Shown: positions 19,641-26,735 of the stretch, in pieces | How the letters are laid out: every line of letters begins with the position of its first letter | How positions within the stretch are numbered: position 1 is the stretch's first letter | Program-made: the position numbers and the translations under genes | Assembly (NCBI RefSeq): GCF_003945235.1 | Contig: NZ_RSDW01000001.1 | Coordinates: 4,230,001 to 4,262,000 of the forward strand | Length of the DNA: 32,000 nucleotides | Origin: Edaphobacter aggregans | GTDB lineage: Bacteria > Acidobacteriota > Terriglobia > Terriglobales > Acidobacteriaceae | Direction: 5' to 3' | The notes under the pieces: generated by a model | What the model saw: only the letters and a program-made list of their open reading frames with translations | Told to the model about the DNA's origin: nothing | The model's database searches: none

Positions 19641-20693
19641 ATGCAAGACGATACAACGTTTTCTCTCACCGGCGCGAGCCGGCTGAACGGCAGCGGTGGC
19701 GTGAACGGCCAGAAGTTCGGCTCGCGCGACGCTAACGATCGAGGCGCGCGGCGACACCTCGAGGGCGATGTGGAAGGAGCAAAAGCTGAATACCTGTCGG
19801 CACTCGAACTGGATTCCGGCAACGCGACTGCGCATAACAATCTCGGTTTCCTGCTGTCCCAGGAAGGTCAATTAGACAAGGCCATCGCCCATTACCAGCT
19901 AGCCCTCGAAATTGACCCGCAGAAGAGCATGGCCATGGCCAACATGGGGCTCGTAGAGGGCGCTCAGGGCAATGATAAGGCCGCTGTGGAATGGCTTCGC
20001 CGCGCGGTAGGGGCCAACACTGGCAACGTTCTTGCCTGGGATAATCTAAGCCGATTGCTGCTGAAAATGGGCCGGCTTACCGAGGCCGAAGCCGCGGCGC
20101 GAACTGCCCTGGAGGCCGCACCCCATGAGGGGCGCTTTTACCTCACCTTGGGACTGGCCGTCGCCGGGCAGCAGCGCCTGACGGAAGCGGTCGAGATATT
20201 CAAACGCACTGTCCACCTTGATCCTAATTCAGCAAATAGCTGGGAACAATTGGGCGTAGTGCTCTGGCTCCGGCAGGATCTGGGTTCTGCAGCCGACGCT
20301 CTTCGGCGCGCCGTTACGCTCGACTCGCAAAGCGTCTCGGCTCGCTATCATCTGGCCCTGGTTCTGTTGACCAGGGGCGAGCACGAAGCCGCGGTCAAGG
20401 AGCTGGAATCTGTTCTGGCCATCGAACCGGGTCATGCCGCCGCGCAACTAGATCTGGCGGTACTTTCAGTCTCGCAGGGCGATGCCGCGGGGGCTCTCGA
20501 CAGACTGGAAGTAATCCTGCACAGTGACCCGGAGAATCCGCGGGCCCTTTTTTACCGCGCGGTCGCACTTGATCAGTCGCAGCGAACTAGCGAAGCCACG
20601 GAGCTCCTGCAGGCACTGGCTGACGCCGGCAAAGGCAAGTATTCGCAGCGAGCGCACGTCTATCTGGAAGAAAGGAGCGGGAGACACTCCTAG
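19641..20693 (+). CDS. Tetratricopeptide (TPR) repeat protein
   Basis: GGAGG (19630-19634) lies 6 nt before the ATG. About eight consecutive 34-aa TPR units are visible, for example AEYLSALELDSGNATAHNNLGFLLSQEGQLDKAIAHYQLALEIDPQKSMAMANMGLV and ...FKRTVHLDPNSANSWEQLGVVLW. The gene starts 20 nt after the DUF4157 gene and ends 6 nt before the next gene. Confidence 0.9.
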   Translation: MQDDTTFSLTGASRLNGSGGVNGQKFGSRDANDRGARRHLEGDVEGAKAEYLSALELDSGNATAHNNLGFLLSQEGQLDKAIAHYQLALEIDPQKSMAMANMGLVEGAQGNDKAAVEWLRRAVGANTGNVLAWDNLSRLLLKMGRLTEAEAAARTALEAAPHEGRFYLTLGLAVAGQQRLTEAVEIFKRTVHLDPNSANSWEQLGVVLWLRQDLGSAADALRRAVTLDSQSVSARYHLALVLLTRGEHEAAVKELESVLAIEPGHAAAQLDLAVLSVSQGDAAGALDRLEVILHSDPENPRALFYRAVALDQSQRTSEATELLQALADAGKGKYSQRAHVYLEERSGRHS

Positions 20694-20699
20694 TGATCC

Positions 20700-26600: not shown

Positions 26601-26735
26601 AGGCCAGTGAATTTGCAGTTACCTCCGTTCTGCTTCCCGGAGCCTGTCAGAACTATCAACGAGAAATGCAGCGAGAATAATGGCATGTATTCAGACAAGA
26701 GTCTGGGGCTCTGGCGTCTGGACGATATCCCGTAA
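20700..26735 (+). CDS. 2011-aa multidomain glycosyltransferase/methyltransferase fusion (DUF115/MptE-like + GT-B + GT2 with GT7C-type motif + GT32/Caps_synth-like + SAM-MT + GT2 + SAM-MT)
   Basis: This is a domain map by motif; the nucleotide position of residue aa is 20700+3(aa-1). aa 30-215 is DUF115/MptE-like (ILVCGCGSSL...IGVNDVGRLFQPDYLVVLNP...GATRIGLIGVDF). aa 228-540 is GT-B, GT4-like (HIVIDECVTGSYHRNSLEGLALGCVVVNG). aa 585-790 is GT2 with LVLWMDNDLIM and FRGWGGEDDAWW (GWGGEDD at 22968-22988). aa 1018-1200 is GT32/capsule-synthesis-like (PIWMYWEG...RADYIRAFLLAKYGGLWIDSDCIVMRPL). aa 1286-1488 is a class I SAM-MT (VVDAGCGD at 24702-24725). aa 1524-1745 is a second GT2 (LAVIVPIS...CLMDADILP...FRGFGFEDSEFW). 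aa 1812-2011 is a second SAM-MT (LLDAACGD at 26271-26294). Confidence 0.9.
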   Translation: MNAAIAQPDPIVLPQVAESRALPHELKDFRGHHAGETILVCGCGSSLSDIVSPDRFITIGVNDVGRLFQPDYLVVLNPRQQFHNDRFQFVEQSRARAIFTQLNLGILHPHIVRFRLGKFGGVDFSDHSCLHYTRNSPYLAMCLAIHMGATRIGLIGVDFNADHFFAKTGQHPLTRQLPQIDQEYKRLYDACNRQGIEVVNLSANSRLTALPKMSPEEFASRGQSKKSLNVVSYSTTPVAGVPAILARCIASRTAHTCRTVWATKSYSNGVAFDGDVEWQRLPEVAETLLRSADLVIVHNGKVDERHRAFLRNKPIITMAHNYISNIDQAFLQQGFPGVVVGQYQAALPEFKGWHVVPNPVPLWETAFQPIAKQLPITICYTPSGKHDTYPRNHRLYWHSKGHSSTIRVLESLARRYEVQLEVIRGSQVSHAESLAMKRRAHIVIDECVTGSYHRNSLEGLALGCVVVNGVGSVPSIADLLTHCAGGAVEIPFVQAGLDDLERVLTILIERGAAALVAQGERNRRWMEERWDFRQQWTRFWEPAVDQATRPRRHSAASVHLAHSAPLRGEKGVSHQIAATVLAEGLSVVVCQGGKERLPQLGASLANLRQCEGVSEIIVAEMGCAPVAEELARRWADKYAFVKADDAFERARALNIGTSLAEYDLVLWMDNDLIMSPDFISKAVKEMRANGLDYLIPYARLDCLSASDSKAVMQGVCNPADCAVAGVYLPLRPAYGGAGIVKRSFILEYGGISEDFRGWGGEDDAWWHKASLLGRADVTQQRNQSLHHLFHLNSGSYTKQKESNPHYSRNVAALKEISSVRDRETFLKRFQPPRVSWSWENKSIAFVSRHIGSDSLPSAVAHHLSKLVLGQVLPQVLTDNDVASKDWFAKNSPDALVLCGLESAIPVLADEAQSAIWRKTIVIHTGGDLTVDVAQPLQRAGAIVCLSGADATQLRKAGLRPWTCGRSAGLPPTPFDIAMNLLQPLSIVMGGAIPSNLAASNVDVETRIAGSADPQPPNDLPIWMYWEGQCPDWIKACQQTVFRHATDVRLLSSSDFDRLRDIDRDIDLRQLHVAQRADYIRAFLLAKYGGLWIDSDCIVMRPLRPLLDILNEFEFIAHRERTGGFWANDFMAAARDSKIAATLYRKICDRLRSSAPIGWTDLGCMAVTETLKAADTPWFEIRPERIQPVCWSNPAPFFALKNAGGHQQTFDHRAVCYMLSNLTMQKNLKTTHLSKLLLSEGTFFKYLLGESMGKGPTASAKADSATSTPASRNVLPDQLSDLGTSQPMEDIFKRMMTQFSLAGYESLSGPGSSLLATSEIRQRLPLLIQDLEVKSVVDAGCGDLHWMKRVKLAVQEYVGVDVIPSVVDSNQKNSCSPNSRFITVDLTRQPTPKADLIICRDCLVLLSYEDIASVLRNFAKSGSQYLLTTTFANHAPNSELGTGRWRPLNLRRPPFNFPEPLRIINEKCTEGGGNFSDKSLALWRMEDVPMMDASPKMRAEDSATTANVTEDNLQTSFAADRQAPYELAVIVPISIGATQDIRLRNIKACLQALNSQDLDRKRYRVIVVEQDSEPRLESVLSTCVDKYLFSYNPGPFNKGWALNIGVRAGFSATTAVCLMDADILPSRSFLKDGLDCMLSSHRALRPYERVIYLDSPSTELAIQHRLGRAGCAPDESKYRGQSFQSSKGGCIWVQTKLYAEIRGFDERFRGFGFEDSEFWDRLSKSTPIKVLPGSLLHMHHLPSVDRNCSAANARLYDQVTRGHLAAWTGPMGGIHRYFHEYQDANSNLARRNGRRLAGVTNRNGMSVLDATVEPFVQMACYNSRAGRESVSGPGSSLDQTAEIRSSLPSVIRDIDARSLLDAACGDFNWMRHVAIKFDEYIGVDLIPAVIEQNQRFFAEHGRTFMYSDITRDALPKVDLILCRDCLVHYSYSNIFRALKNFKASKSKYLLTTTFDQRKTNADITTGGWRPVNLQLPPFCFPEPVRTINEKCSENNGMYSDKSLGLWRLDDIP

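Follow-up and report, generated by a model that had tools for sequence, protein, structure and literature searches.

The window, a stretch of 32,000 nucleotides from Edaphobacter aggregans, carries an eCIS cluster whose main genes all lie on the + strand (52-26735). Its 3' part has the gene order AAA+ ATPase, DUF4157 cargo, TPR protein and a giant transferase, referred to here as the megaenzyme:

13445..15559, + strand: eCIS AAA+ ATPase (Afp15/Pvc15-like; Pfam AAA 3.8e-22), used as a context marker in the co-occurrence analysis
15514..19620, + strand: cargo-type protein with an eCIS_core domain (DUF4157, HEAAH; Pfam eCIS_core 2e-21, aa 365-437; translation)
19621..19640, + strand: 20-nt spacer with the Shine-Dalgarno-like GGAGGTGGG, read from the sequence
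19641..20693, + strand: TPR protein, 350 aa (TPR families up to 1e-32)
20700..26735, + strand: megaenzyme, 2011 aa, multi-domain glycosyl/methyl-transferase (ORF list, domain matches)
27290..27751, - strand: integrase-core (rve) fragment left from a decayed IS element (Pfam rve_3 8.1e-26, rve 2.6e-13), which marks the downstream edge of the island

The cargo stop codon (TAA, 19618-19620) is separated by 20 nt from the TPR start codon (ATG, 19641), and the TPR stop codon (TAG, 20691-20693) by 6 nt from the megaenzyme start codon (ATG, 20700), in exact agreement with the gaps given in a preliminary description of this DNA. That description had also seen all genes on one strand with no terminator-like hairpin between them. 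Both points hold according to the ORF list and a consensus scan, which yielded no + strand terminator-like site in 15000-23155 and no promoter-like site in 18074-24325, such scans being weak evidence in an acidobacterium. Operon-like coupling of the megaenzyme, likewise proposed earlier, is supported by these short gaps and by the related loci described below, where 57 of 64 upstream neighbors are co-oriented with the enzyme gene and the median gap is 12 nt. Co-transcription of the cargo, TPR and megaenzyme genes is predicted and plausible. The genes that follow the island had no match in PADLOC.

The megaenzyme is 100% identical to the Edaphobacter aggregans protein P0001 and is composed of the following parts:

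20775..21365 (aa 26-222), + strand: MptE/DUF115-like, CstII-like nucleotide-sugar transferase domain (Foldseek; PF01973 sub-threshold)
21375..22349 (aa 226-550), + strand: GT-B (GT4-like) domain with the invariant motif IDECVTGSYHRNSLEGL (AF2 model, Foldseek, invariant columns)
22455..23129 (aa 586-810), + strand: GT2 (GT-A) with Glyco_transf_7C, WGGED at aa 758 (Pfam GT2 3.4e-9, Glyco_transf_7C 7.2e-6)
23130..23747 (aa 811-1016), + strand: stretch of ~200 aa without domain assignment (weak Rossmann-like match at 0.0096 only)
23748..24449 (aa 1017-1250), + strand: GT32-like domain (Caps_synth/Gly_transf_sug), DSD at aa 1093 (Pfam 2.4e-10, 4.9e-8)
24567..25199 (aa 1290-1500), + strand: class I SAM methyltransferase a, DAGCGD at aa 1337 (Methyltransf_25 1.5e-8)
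25317..26069 (aa 1540-1790), + strand: second GT2, FGFED at aa 1710 (Glyco_tranf_2_2 9.4e-8, Glyco_transf_7C 1.9e-7)
26097..26732 (aa 1800-2011), + strand: class I SAM methyltransferase b, DAACGD at aa 1860 (Methyltransf_25 1.7e-6)

All seven domains named in the preliminary description were recovered by Pfam, AlphaFold2 with Foldseek, or motifs. No above-threshold Pfam match was obtained for the N-terminal 585 residues, and no Pfam family such as Glycos_transf_1 matched aa 226-585; the first two domains were characterized using an AlphaFold2 model of the N-terminal part (pLDDT 86.5). The N-domain, which contains the motifs VCGCGSSL and TIGVNDVGR, resembles the sialyltransferase CstII (Foldseek 2x61_B, 6.7e-4) and phage proteins annotated as MptE-like (Foldseek BFVD, 2.6e-8 to 1e-4). 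PF01973 itself reached 16.5 bits against a gathering cut-off of 34.6 and is thus sub-threshold, as it is in the 13 of 15 family members where it recurs at E<=0.1 (best 3e-5). The DUF115/MptE-like assignment made earlier is therefore kept as a likeness of fold, while formal PF01973 membership is not. Residues ~226-550 adopt a GT-B fold (Foldseek PDB 5zer, 1.9e-5; MshA (3c4q), TreT and WaaG, E 1.9e-5 to 5e-4), in which the canonical EX7E motif is absent and the spacing E446-x11-E458 is found instead. Both folds also occur in tailed-phage proteins (Foldseek BFVD). Using the N-module, no match was found in 72,556 plasmids (tblastn) or in NCBIfam, and neither the single protein nor an N-domain profile retrieved more than noise from PDB sequences. 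A set of 2.9 million viral contigs held no close family relatives, GT-B relatives being present at 27-36% identity only. An exact-sequence contig look-up with the megaenzyme returned no record. The N-terminal ~25 residues were considered as a packaging leader and dropped, being short and not alike by eye to the cargo N-terminus.

In the remainder of the protein, GT2 membership is indicated by two copies of PF00535 and PF02709 above threshold, and the unassigned stretch at aa 811-1016 is poorly conserved in the family, with few conserved columns. The two methyltransferases share 52.5% identity over 198 aa and thus result from an internal duplication. No transmembrane-like segment is present in the megaenzyme, the Kyte-Doolittle 19-mer maximum of 1.64 lying inside Rossmann strands.

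To place the megaenzyme in a wider context, 185,579 species genomes were searched and 80 related loci were retrieved; 56 of these have 8 kb or more of upstream sequence and were treated as informative. Approximately 39 of the 56 (~70%) lie in eCIS clusters: eCIS markers are found upstream and co-oriented in 36, of which 29 have an AAA ATPase homolog, and 3 further loci were counted as eCIS by a sheath gene or shared gene order. The relative is usually the last gene of the cluster, following the AAA ATPase and a toxin, and adjoins sheath genes at the 5' side in two loci. Genes immediately upstream encode cargo or toxins, namely eCIS_core proteins or an Ntox15 toxin with a GAD-like/Tdi1-type immunity gene behind it; in Pyrinomonadaceae the relative directly follows such toxin-immunity pairs. 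A second, undescribed toxin-like locus that is not an eCIS ("type C") accounts for 10 of the 56 informative loci. The loci belong to Acidobacteriota, Alpha-, Beta- and Gammaproteobacteria and others. We thus describe a previously undescribed megaenzyme family that is spread over many bacterial phyla and sits at the end of phage-tail-like toxin injector clusters. The eCIS surveys consulted do not discuss a cross-phylum giant glycan-enzyme family and contain only unremarked neighbor annotations and weak "cloud" domain enrichments. The conserved part of the family is the N-terminal ~550 aa while the C-terminal modules vary (GT2, GT8, GT9 x2, GT31, GT32, Methyltransf_24/_11/_25, pyruvyl transferase x2). 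Some loci contain extra same-strand genes (MT+GT2, GT2x2, Glyco_trans_1_2, UDP-GlcNAc 2-epimerase, flavin monooxygenase), the epimerase in only a few. The N-module is present in 2 of the 28 sister eCIS loci for which 8 kb or more of downstream sequence was available, so the enzyme is optional for this eCIS lineage and not a core component.

These counts bear directly on whether an ordinary polysaccharide gene merely came to lie beside the eCIS cluster in this genome. The lowered GC content (0.51-0.57, compared with 0.58-0.61 for the structural genes), the IS remnant directly downstream and the ~12% of related loci that have no delivery-system neighbor within 10 kb would all fit such chance adjacency. 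However, about 2% of genomes contain an eCIS (1,249 genomes; PMC8213781), as opposed to the ~70% of informative GT loci that lie inside eCIS clusters, and position and orientation are conserved across several phyla. Because of this co-occurrence, we regard chance adjacency as effectively refuted. The eCIS link proposed in the preliminary description is strongly supported in this respect, and its worry that homologs might sit in O-antigen or capsule ABC-transporter clusters did not materialize, relatives lying mostly in eCIS loci and none of the 56 informative loci belonging visibly to an export cluster for O-antigen or capsule. Gene neighborhoods strongly support a tie between the megaenzyme and the eCIS locus, and speak against a stray polysaccharide gene.

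The TPR protein had been paired with the transferase as a functional unit in which it would present a protein substrate. The 6-nt gap has the geometry of translational coupling, and the cargo-TPR-GT trio is kept across phyla in three further loci (L002, L054 and L020). On the other hand, the TPR gene is present in just 3 of 80 GT loci, no TPR-GT fusions exist among 279 family proteins, and the gene directly follows a c30-type DUF4157 cargo in 7 of 7 loci (the window, L002, L054, L020, L175, L176 and L177), of which L175 (Thioalkalivibrio paradoxus), L176 (Methylomonas) and L177 have cargo and TPR without the enzyme. We therefore consider a dedicated TPR-enzyme unit very unlikely. Since the TPR protein tracks the cargo in enzyme-less loci, gene order assigns it to the upstream cargo type and not to the enzyme. 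It may act as chaperone, adaptor or immunity partner of the DUF4157 cargo, and setting it apart as a cargo-specific partner is useful for studies of DUF4157 cargo loading.

With the TPR gene assigned to the cargo, the question becomes what the megaenzyme does for the injector clusters at whose end it sits. This location suggests that the family probably makes a glycan destined for the injectors. We propose that it represents a mobile, optional accessory of extracellular toxin-delivery clusters, above all eCIS, defined by a conserved ~550-aa N-module (MptE/CstII-like plus GT-B) fused to a variable elaborating and capping train, the order in the window being GT2, GT32-like, methyltransferase, GT2, methyltransferase. 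The megaenzyme would be a soluble, cytoplasmic and modular glycan assembly line that works on the producer side and decorates a putative protein acceptor of the particle or cargo, a reading to which we assign a probability of about 0.4. In the producer cytoplasm, at the site of eCIS assembly and before release, the N-module would recognize the acceptor, for which a particle or cargo protein is the likeliest candidate, and add the first sugars. The variable modules would then lengthen the chain, with O-methylation as a putative cap, and the machine would leave the cell bearing a lineage-specific glycan. Producer-side synthesis is favored by the C-terminal variation, which is restricted to glycan-building and glycan-decorating modules, and by the UDP-GlcNAc 2-epimerase of some loci, a precursor-supply enzyme that makes sense only in the producer. 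We infer cytoplasmic action from the lack of a transmembrane segment in the window enzyme and of an ABC ATPase or conserved multi-TM protein nearby.

Some of the same features would be expected of an eCIS payload, i.e. a giant injected effector that glycosylates and methylates target-cell molecules or drains nucleotide sugars. The 3' payload region beside the DUF4157 cargo gene is the expected site of eCIS-associated toxins (PMC8213781). Applying the EAT criteria of Geller et al. 2021, a 3'-end/DUF4157-adjacent position is found in the window and most related loci. This position, together with the optional nature of the enzyme and its mobility between delivery-locus types, also marks effector cassettes and thus counts against producer-side assembly. 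In relatives of the type C locus without the GT, the same slot is filled by a patatin or an adenylate-cyclase (Anthrax_toxA) toxin. Further, a parallel is offered by Afp18 and PaTox, two Afp/PVC-linked glycosyltransferase toxins (PMC10598620; Geller supplement) with a PF04488-type GT-A DXD domain encoded in the eCIS payload region. The GT32-like domain matches PF04488, a family that the Geller supplement also gives as a match of PaTox (PAU_02230). However, Afp18 and PaTox, which target Rho GTPases, combine a single GT domain with toxin domains, whereas the megaenzyme is of glycan-synthesis type throughout and has another conserved core module. Four to five transferase domains with two capping methyltransferases resemble an assembly line and not a single-hit toxin, and the C-terminal part varies only in glycan-tailoring modules, pyruvyl transferases and ADP-heptose-type GT9 among them. 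Several loci add separate GT/MT genes and the epimerase, and the two loci with the enzyme at the 5' side by the sheath genes do not fit the payload position. With regard to the remaining EAT criteria, an own DUF4157 domain was found in 0 of 279 family proteins (phmmer, window DUF4157 domain as query) and no packaging leader was found; the conserved catalytic domain begins at residue ~26 and so leaves little space for a leader. Taken together, we consider a payload role unlikely; an injected enzyme would constitute a new effector class.

The glycan could also belong to the surface of the producer, where remodeling of LPS, EPS or capsule would block re-adsorption of particles to siblings. This resembles receptor masking in phage-driven O-antigen conversion, and the Pyrinomonadaceae position after toxin-immunity pairs fits self-protection. 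Several GT domains combined with a terminal methyltransferase form the WbdA/WbdD-type architecture of polymerization and termination. The megaenzyme, with serial GT domains and a terminating methyltransferase, could work like these O-antigen polymerases of the ABC-transporter pathway, and its module diversity recalls O-antigen diversification. In contrast to WbdA/WbdD, the family resides in eCIS clusters and not in O-antigen clusters, with no Wzm/Wzt or export genes nearby: a crude motif and hydropathy test of 72 loci revealed no ABC-transporter ATPase, flippase, polymerase-like or other conserved multi-TM protein within 10 kb. An "ABC ATPase" signal in three loci was traced to eCIS AAA proteins. 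Gene maps showed no initiating phosphoglycosyltransferase nearby, and the window enzyme has no membrane anchor. A role in the producer surface glycan is consequently improbable.

Decoration of a particle or cargo protein has several precedents to which the megaenzyme can be compared. The Maf (DUF115/PF01973) transferases, which add nonulosonic acids to flagellin, are cytoplasmic enzymes linked to the assembly of an extracellular protein and share with the N-domain an MptE/DUF115-type fold and sialyltransferase-like motifs. However, PF01973 stays below its gathering score in the megaenzyme, its domain is fused to GT-B and a module train, and gene maps show neither flagellin nor nonulosonic-acid (CMP-Pse/Leg) biosynthesis genes as neighbors, the UDP-GlcNAc 2-epimerase occurring alone and in some loci. 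Capsid and tail glycosylation is found in mycobacteriophages. The chlorovirus proteins A064R and A111/114R are multi-domain GT/MT enzymes of virion glycosylation (PMC9614988, PMC7826918; for further reading on phage capsid and tail glycosylation, PMC11256854). As in the megaenzyme, several transferases and a capping O-methyltransferase are combined on one polypeptide; in the viruses, and putatively also in the megaenzyme, they work in the cytoplasm and modify proteins of a particle released later. The trait is optional and lineage-specific, and structural relatives of the N-module are encoded by tailed phages. The viral enzymes differ in being much smaller, lacking sequence-level homology and having known acceptors (capsid, tail tube). 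Serine-rich-repeat adhesins are modified by a GtfA/GtfB core and variable extra GTs, encoded as separate proteins, together with an accessory Sec system and Ser-rich repeats. The logic of a conserved GT-B priming enzyme with a species-variable GT-A elaborating set is common to both, but neither such repeats nor SecA2/Y2 are present at the megaenzyme locus. HMW1C, a soluble GT-B enzyme, is encoded by the last gene of a two-partner secretion locus and modifies a large exported protein in the cytoplasm (PMC2877744, PMC3983070). The megaenzyme shares the soluble GT-B enzyme at the locus end and putatively also cytoplasmic modification before export. HMW1C differs in consisting of a single GT41 domain and an all-alpha domain and in transferring single hexoses onto Asn, whereas the megaenzyme has no GT41 but a CstII/MptE-like domain, a GT4-like module and five further catalytic domains, and its acceptor is putative.

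As candidate acceptor, the cargo protein likely starts at the ATG at 15589; it has N-terminal repeats rich in lysine, glutamate and proline, followed by a C-terminal region of ~900 aa without recognized function. DUF4157 proteins of AlgoCIS, Cgo1 and Cgo2, are tube-lumen cargo (PMC8894135). The Thr/Ser-rich fibre-position proteins suggested earlier as acceptors were not borne out, as no window protein, those at the fibre position included, contains 60 consecutive residues of which 40% or more are S/T. No conserved Ser/Thr-rich acceptor tract was found in neighbor proteins either, nor a protein family common to all GT-bearing loci. These results, and the dispensability of the enzyme (2/28), argue against producer-side decoration of a particle or cargo protein. 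NCBIfam searches with the cargo, u11316 and u5782 gave no match, and the eCIS literature searched holds no report of glycosylated eCIS. Overall, the domain inventory, coupling and eCIS tie of the preliminary description stand, while its TPR-GT pair and Thr/Ser-rich acceptors do not.

These considerations matter because work is under way to turn eCIS into programmable devices for protein delivery and little is known about their accessory genes. If particles or cargo were glycosylated, this would add a post-translational layer to eCIS, which may bear on how stable they are in soil, which receptors they choose and how visible they are to the immune system. In that case, the megaenzyme would also offer a compact toolkit, encoded by a single gene, with which engineered particles could be decorated. 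We tentatively extend this idea to a mobile, self-contained assembly line that may coat both eCIS and the undescribed machines of two giant proteins with lineage-specific, methyl-capped glycans, the coat being diversified like O-antigens. Such an O-antigen-like coat would influence stability, targeting or recognition of the injection particles.

In case of the type C locus, profile-profile comparison of the proteins c5, c6, c9 and c23 with eCIS proteins revealed no relation. PDB profile searches with the 1157-aa and ~2300-aa proteins and NCBIfam searches with the type C proteins gave no match, and an AlphaFold2 model of P0122 had a pLDDT of 64.8 with meaningless Foldseek matches (TM 0.06). The type C locus is built around two giant proteins.

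Every gene of the window from 52 to 26735 lies on the + strand according to the ORF listing, and the 2011-aa multi-domain glycosyl-/methyltransferase (the enzyme) stands last in this row.

Genes of the eCIS row and its 3' flank
Within 52-26735, +, Baseplate_J protein (Pfam)
1429-4347, +, Afp12-like baseplate protein, Tail_P2_I-like (Pfam)
Within 52-26735, +, four "fibre-position" proteins, without annotation
10381-11322, +, Lgt, prolipoprotein diacylglyceryl transferase (Pfam, 1.3e-41)
Within 52-26735, +, unknown 705-aa protein
Before the DUF4157 gene, +, AAA ATPase (Pfam)
15514-19620, +, eCIS_core (DUF4157) protein, 1368 aa (Pfam), the cargo
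19641-20693, +, TPR protein, 350 aa
20700-26735, +, the enzyme, 2011 aa
27290-27751, -, decayed transposase fragment with rve integrase core, 3' of the enzyme within 26736-31976

The label "cargo" is reasonable since AlgoCIS carries, as cargo in its tube lumen, DUF4157 proteins whose N-terminus is disordered and whose C-terminus varies (PMC8894135). The coordinates and the spacers of 20 nt (cargo to TPR gene) and 6 nt (TPR gene to enzyme gene) agree with the sequence, and a Shine-Dalgarno-like GGAGG precedes the TPR start. As had been proposed, no terminator was apparent at the two junctions: a consensus scan, which is weak evidence in an acidobacterium, gave neither a terminator-like nor a promoter-like site there on the + strand.

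The enzyme is 100% identical to an Edaphobacter aggregans protein at NCBI. The seven domains proposed from the sequence were borne out, the C-terminal five by Pfam and the N-terminal two by structure modeling, Foldseek and recurrence of PF01973. Pfam assigns two GT2 domains with Glyco_transf_7C-type motifs (WGGED at 758 and FGFED at 1710), a GT32-like Caps_synth/Gly_transf_sug domain and two SAM methyltransferase domains sharing 52.5% identity, while neither N-terminal domain has a Pfam match reaching threshold. In an AlphaFold2 model of residues 1-585 (pLDDT 86.5), compared with the PDB using Foldseek, the N-domain is CstII-like and residues ~226-550 adopt a GT-B fold, with matches including BH4 glucosyltransferase, MshA, TreT and WaaG. 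PF01973 stays below threshold yet recurs in 13 of 15 relatives. In a viral structure library, tailed-phage proteins, several annotated as MptE-like, match the N-domain and the entire N-terminal module. No membrane-spanning segment was found in the enzyme, and residues 811-1016 (~200 residues) fall outside all assigned domains.

Relatives of the enzyme number in the hundreds and measure 1300-2000 aa. Using the N-terminal 585 residues as query against 1.84 billion representative proteins, we obtained 1285 representatives at E<=1e-3, of which 216 reach E<=1e-30. The conserved part of the family is the N-terminal ~550 aa (53-69% identity), which contains long invariant motifs such as IDECVTGSYHRNSLEGL. 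Many proteins in the representative library (e.g., P0178, P0183, P0185, P0191, P0193 and P0201) carry the ~200-aa CstII/MptE-like N-domain alone, 55-68% identical and fused to other regions, and this domain is therefore a mobile unit by itself. Three BFVD entries from uncultured Caudovirales (A0A6J5NQ98, A0A6J5N186 and A0A6J5L5C1) closely match the two N-terminal folds, at 24-27% identity and a TM to target of 0.84-0.89. IMG/VR contigs contain no close sequence relatives.

A genome scan with one genome per species, which retrieves only members keeping the GT-B motif, yielded 80 loci. The window's own eCIS proteins served as queries against these loci, and gene maps were derived from plain ORF calling plus BLAST clustering. 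The tblastn-based marker counts are sturdier than the maps. Among the 56 loci whose upstream sequence reaches 8 kb or more, 36 have same-strand eCIS markers upstream (AAA ATPase in 29 of these), three are assigned to eCIS via a sheath gene adjoining the enzyme or via common gene order, ten belong to a second locus type (type C) and seven have an unresolved or distant context. These co-occurrence counts exclude chance adjacency of the enzyme to eCIS. The upstream neighbour lies on the same strand in 57/64 cases, and the gap to it has a median of 12 nt. Directly 5' of the enzyme stand genes for cargo or toxins: in some loci eCIS_core proteins, which fall into several families, in others an Ntox15 toxin with a GAD-like/Tdi1-type immunity gene after it. 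It had been pointed out that homologs sitting consistently in O-antigen or capsule clusters would refute the eCIS link. Since the 10 kb around the enzyme showed neither an ABC-transporter ATPase nor a conserved multi-TM protein, as judged by a motif and hydropathy test only, this refutation fails and the eCIS link stands. Seen from the eCIS loci, the enzyme is optional: it is carried by only 2 of 28 metagenomic sister eCIS loci, which were retrieved via the unrelated protein u11316 and have enough downstream sequence.

In eCIS loci from Pyrinomonadaceae and further Acidobacteriota (L027:6229-9989, with L035, L046 and L049 at the same positions), a ~1060-aa cargo with a C-terminal Ntox15 domain precedes a GAD-like/Tdi1_C protein. 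This is an antibacterial T6SS-type toxin-immunity pair in the eCIS payload slot. The toxin-immunity-enzyme order of the Pyrinomonadaceae loci is mirrored by the cargo-TPR-enzyme order of the window.

The preliminary description treated the TPR protein and the enzyme as a pair, a view that did not survive comparison. Only 3/80 enzyme loci contain TPR homologs, each preceded by the same cargo family. A TPR-based search further led to Thioalkalivibrio paradoxus, Methylomonas and a third contig, where the TPR gene lies directly 3' of the AAA ATPase and a cargo that is 34-51% identical over ~1000 aa to that of the window, and the enzyme is absent from all three. Because the TPR gene accompanies this cargo type in 7/7 loci versus the enzyme in 4/7, its product is best read as a putative cargo-specific chaperone, adaptor or immunity protein.

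In 9-10 type C loci, from Erwinia, Brenneria, Raoultella, Rhizobiales and others, the enzyme comes after a conserved gene set: one to three small ORFs, a ~1150-aa, a ~160-aa and a ~2300-aa protein. The last slot is variable and encodes a patatin phospholipase or an Anthrax_toxA adenylate cyclase where it does not encode the GT family. Instances of the locus, with or without the enzyme, are L082:8543-22160 (Citrobacter freundii), L083/L084, L015, L018, L025, L029, L034, L039, L047, L058 and L068. Walking upstream in Citrobacter freundii and a metagenome contig revealed a compact island flanked by housekeeping genes, with patatin phospholipase or Anthrax_toxA adenylate cyclase in the last slot and no enzyme. 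The conserved proteins have no relatives in Pfam, NCBIfam or PDB, and a structure model was uninformative. We rejected the giant ~2300-aa protein as a polymorphic toxin because its conservation extends up to the C-terminus. Overall, type C looks like an undescribed kind of toxin-delivery system. When the N-terminal module is placed in a tree, type C enzymes mostly form one separate cross-phylum clade. P0002 and P0005, two of the closest full-length relatives of the window's enzyme, are on contigs with type C layout and group with the eCIS clade of Terriglobales to which the window belongs; the enzyme gene thus sometimes moves between system types. In a Longimicrobium contig (L031:2885-14377), the ~2300-aa protein and the enzyme read as a single 3830-codon frame, which could be a true fusion or two adjacent genes in the same frame.

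The C-terminal train of the family varies, and does so exclusively among glycan-building and tailoring modules: GT2, GT8, two GT9 heptosyltransferase-like, GT31, GT32, three methyltransferase classes and two pyruvyl transferases. Several loci have extra same-strand genes 3' of the enzyme (MT+GT2, double GT2, Glyco_trans_1_2, UDP-GlcNAc 2-epimerase, flavin monooxygenase). Taken together, this variation and these genes are the signature expected of a producer-internal pathway for a defined, diversifying glycan. The conserved module would act first as a priming unit, and the variable modules would then elaborate and cap the glycan. At L017:16461-18314, L040:16970-18121 and neighbours, MT+GT2, UDP-GlcNAc 2-epimerase and flavin monooxygenase follow the enzyme; the epimerase set hints at a ManNAc- or nonulosonic-acid-type sugar, consistent with the CstII-like domain. 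Longer epimerase forms have a ~270-aa N-terminal extension without assignment.

Assembly of eCIS particles takes place in the cytoplasm, and release follows. Given this, the soluble enzyme and the lack of a linked exporter, glycosylation of a particle or cargo protein in the cytoplasm appears the most economical reading, to which we assign a probability of roughly 40%. As to the acceptor, the Ser/Thr-rich proteins suggested earlier were not borne out, since a search for such tracts found none, and no protein family common to all enzyme loci was found. It is unlikely that the enzyme is itself an effector injected by eCIS: effector cassettes share its position, its optional presence and its mobility, classical toxins occupy its slot in type C loci lacking it, and the Pfam family of its GT32-like domain also matches PaTox, but its architecture is that of an assembly line with tailoring modules and an accompanying precursor enzyme, it has neither DUF4157 nor any leader, and in two loci its gene adjoins sheath genes. 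Remodelling of the producer's surface glycan, which would agree with a WbdA/WbdD-like logic and with a gene placed behind immunity genes, seems less probable still, given that no initiation or export function is linked (for export, by the motif and hydropathy test). For cytoplasmic glycosylation, the closest working analogies include HMW1C (PMC2877744, PMC3983070), Maf, serine-rich-repeat adhesin glycosylation and virus-encoded virion glycosylation by multi-domain GT/MT enzymes (PMC9614988, PMC7826918).

The main texts of the eCIS survey papers that were consulted do not mention such an enzyme. The supplement of Geller et al. lists Gly_transf_sug and Caps_synth as weakly enriched "cloud" domains and GT2 as depleted, and Danov et al. 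tabulate, with no remark on it, a DUF4157 protein from Phenylobacterium that has an AAA ATPase and a multi-GT2 protein as its neighbours. Public data thus contain instances of the family, but we came across no account of the family or its specific association with eCIS. If our preferred reading is true, the enzyme represents dedicated cytoplasmic glycosylation of an exported assembly, a principle already known; an injected enzyme would be novel beyond that.

Several minor features of the window were also recorded. The protein encoded at 1429-4347 (+) has an additional short Glyco_hydro_42-like stretch (aa 792-849, 2e-10). The Lgt gene (10381-11322), found at the corresponding position in no related eCIS locus, is preceded within the row by a 646-aa protein (8537-10477, +) with the signal-peptide-like N-terminus MKKTRCTAALAMVAVMC. 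Beyond the rve fragment, up to 31976, three coupled + strand genes encode a 201-aa hydrophobic, a 706-aa (weak P-loop) and a 436-aa protein, with no Pfam or PADLOC assignment. Finally, the cargo gene encodes about ten degenerate "PVQR-x-KPEDKK"-type repeats in its N-terminus (15800-16600, +), which account for the extreme AT skew of +0.43 at 16001-17000.
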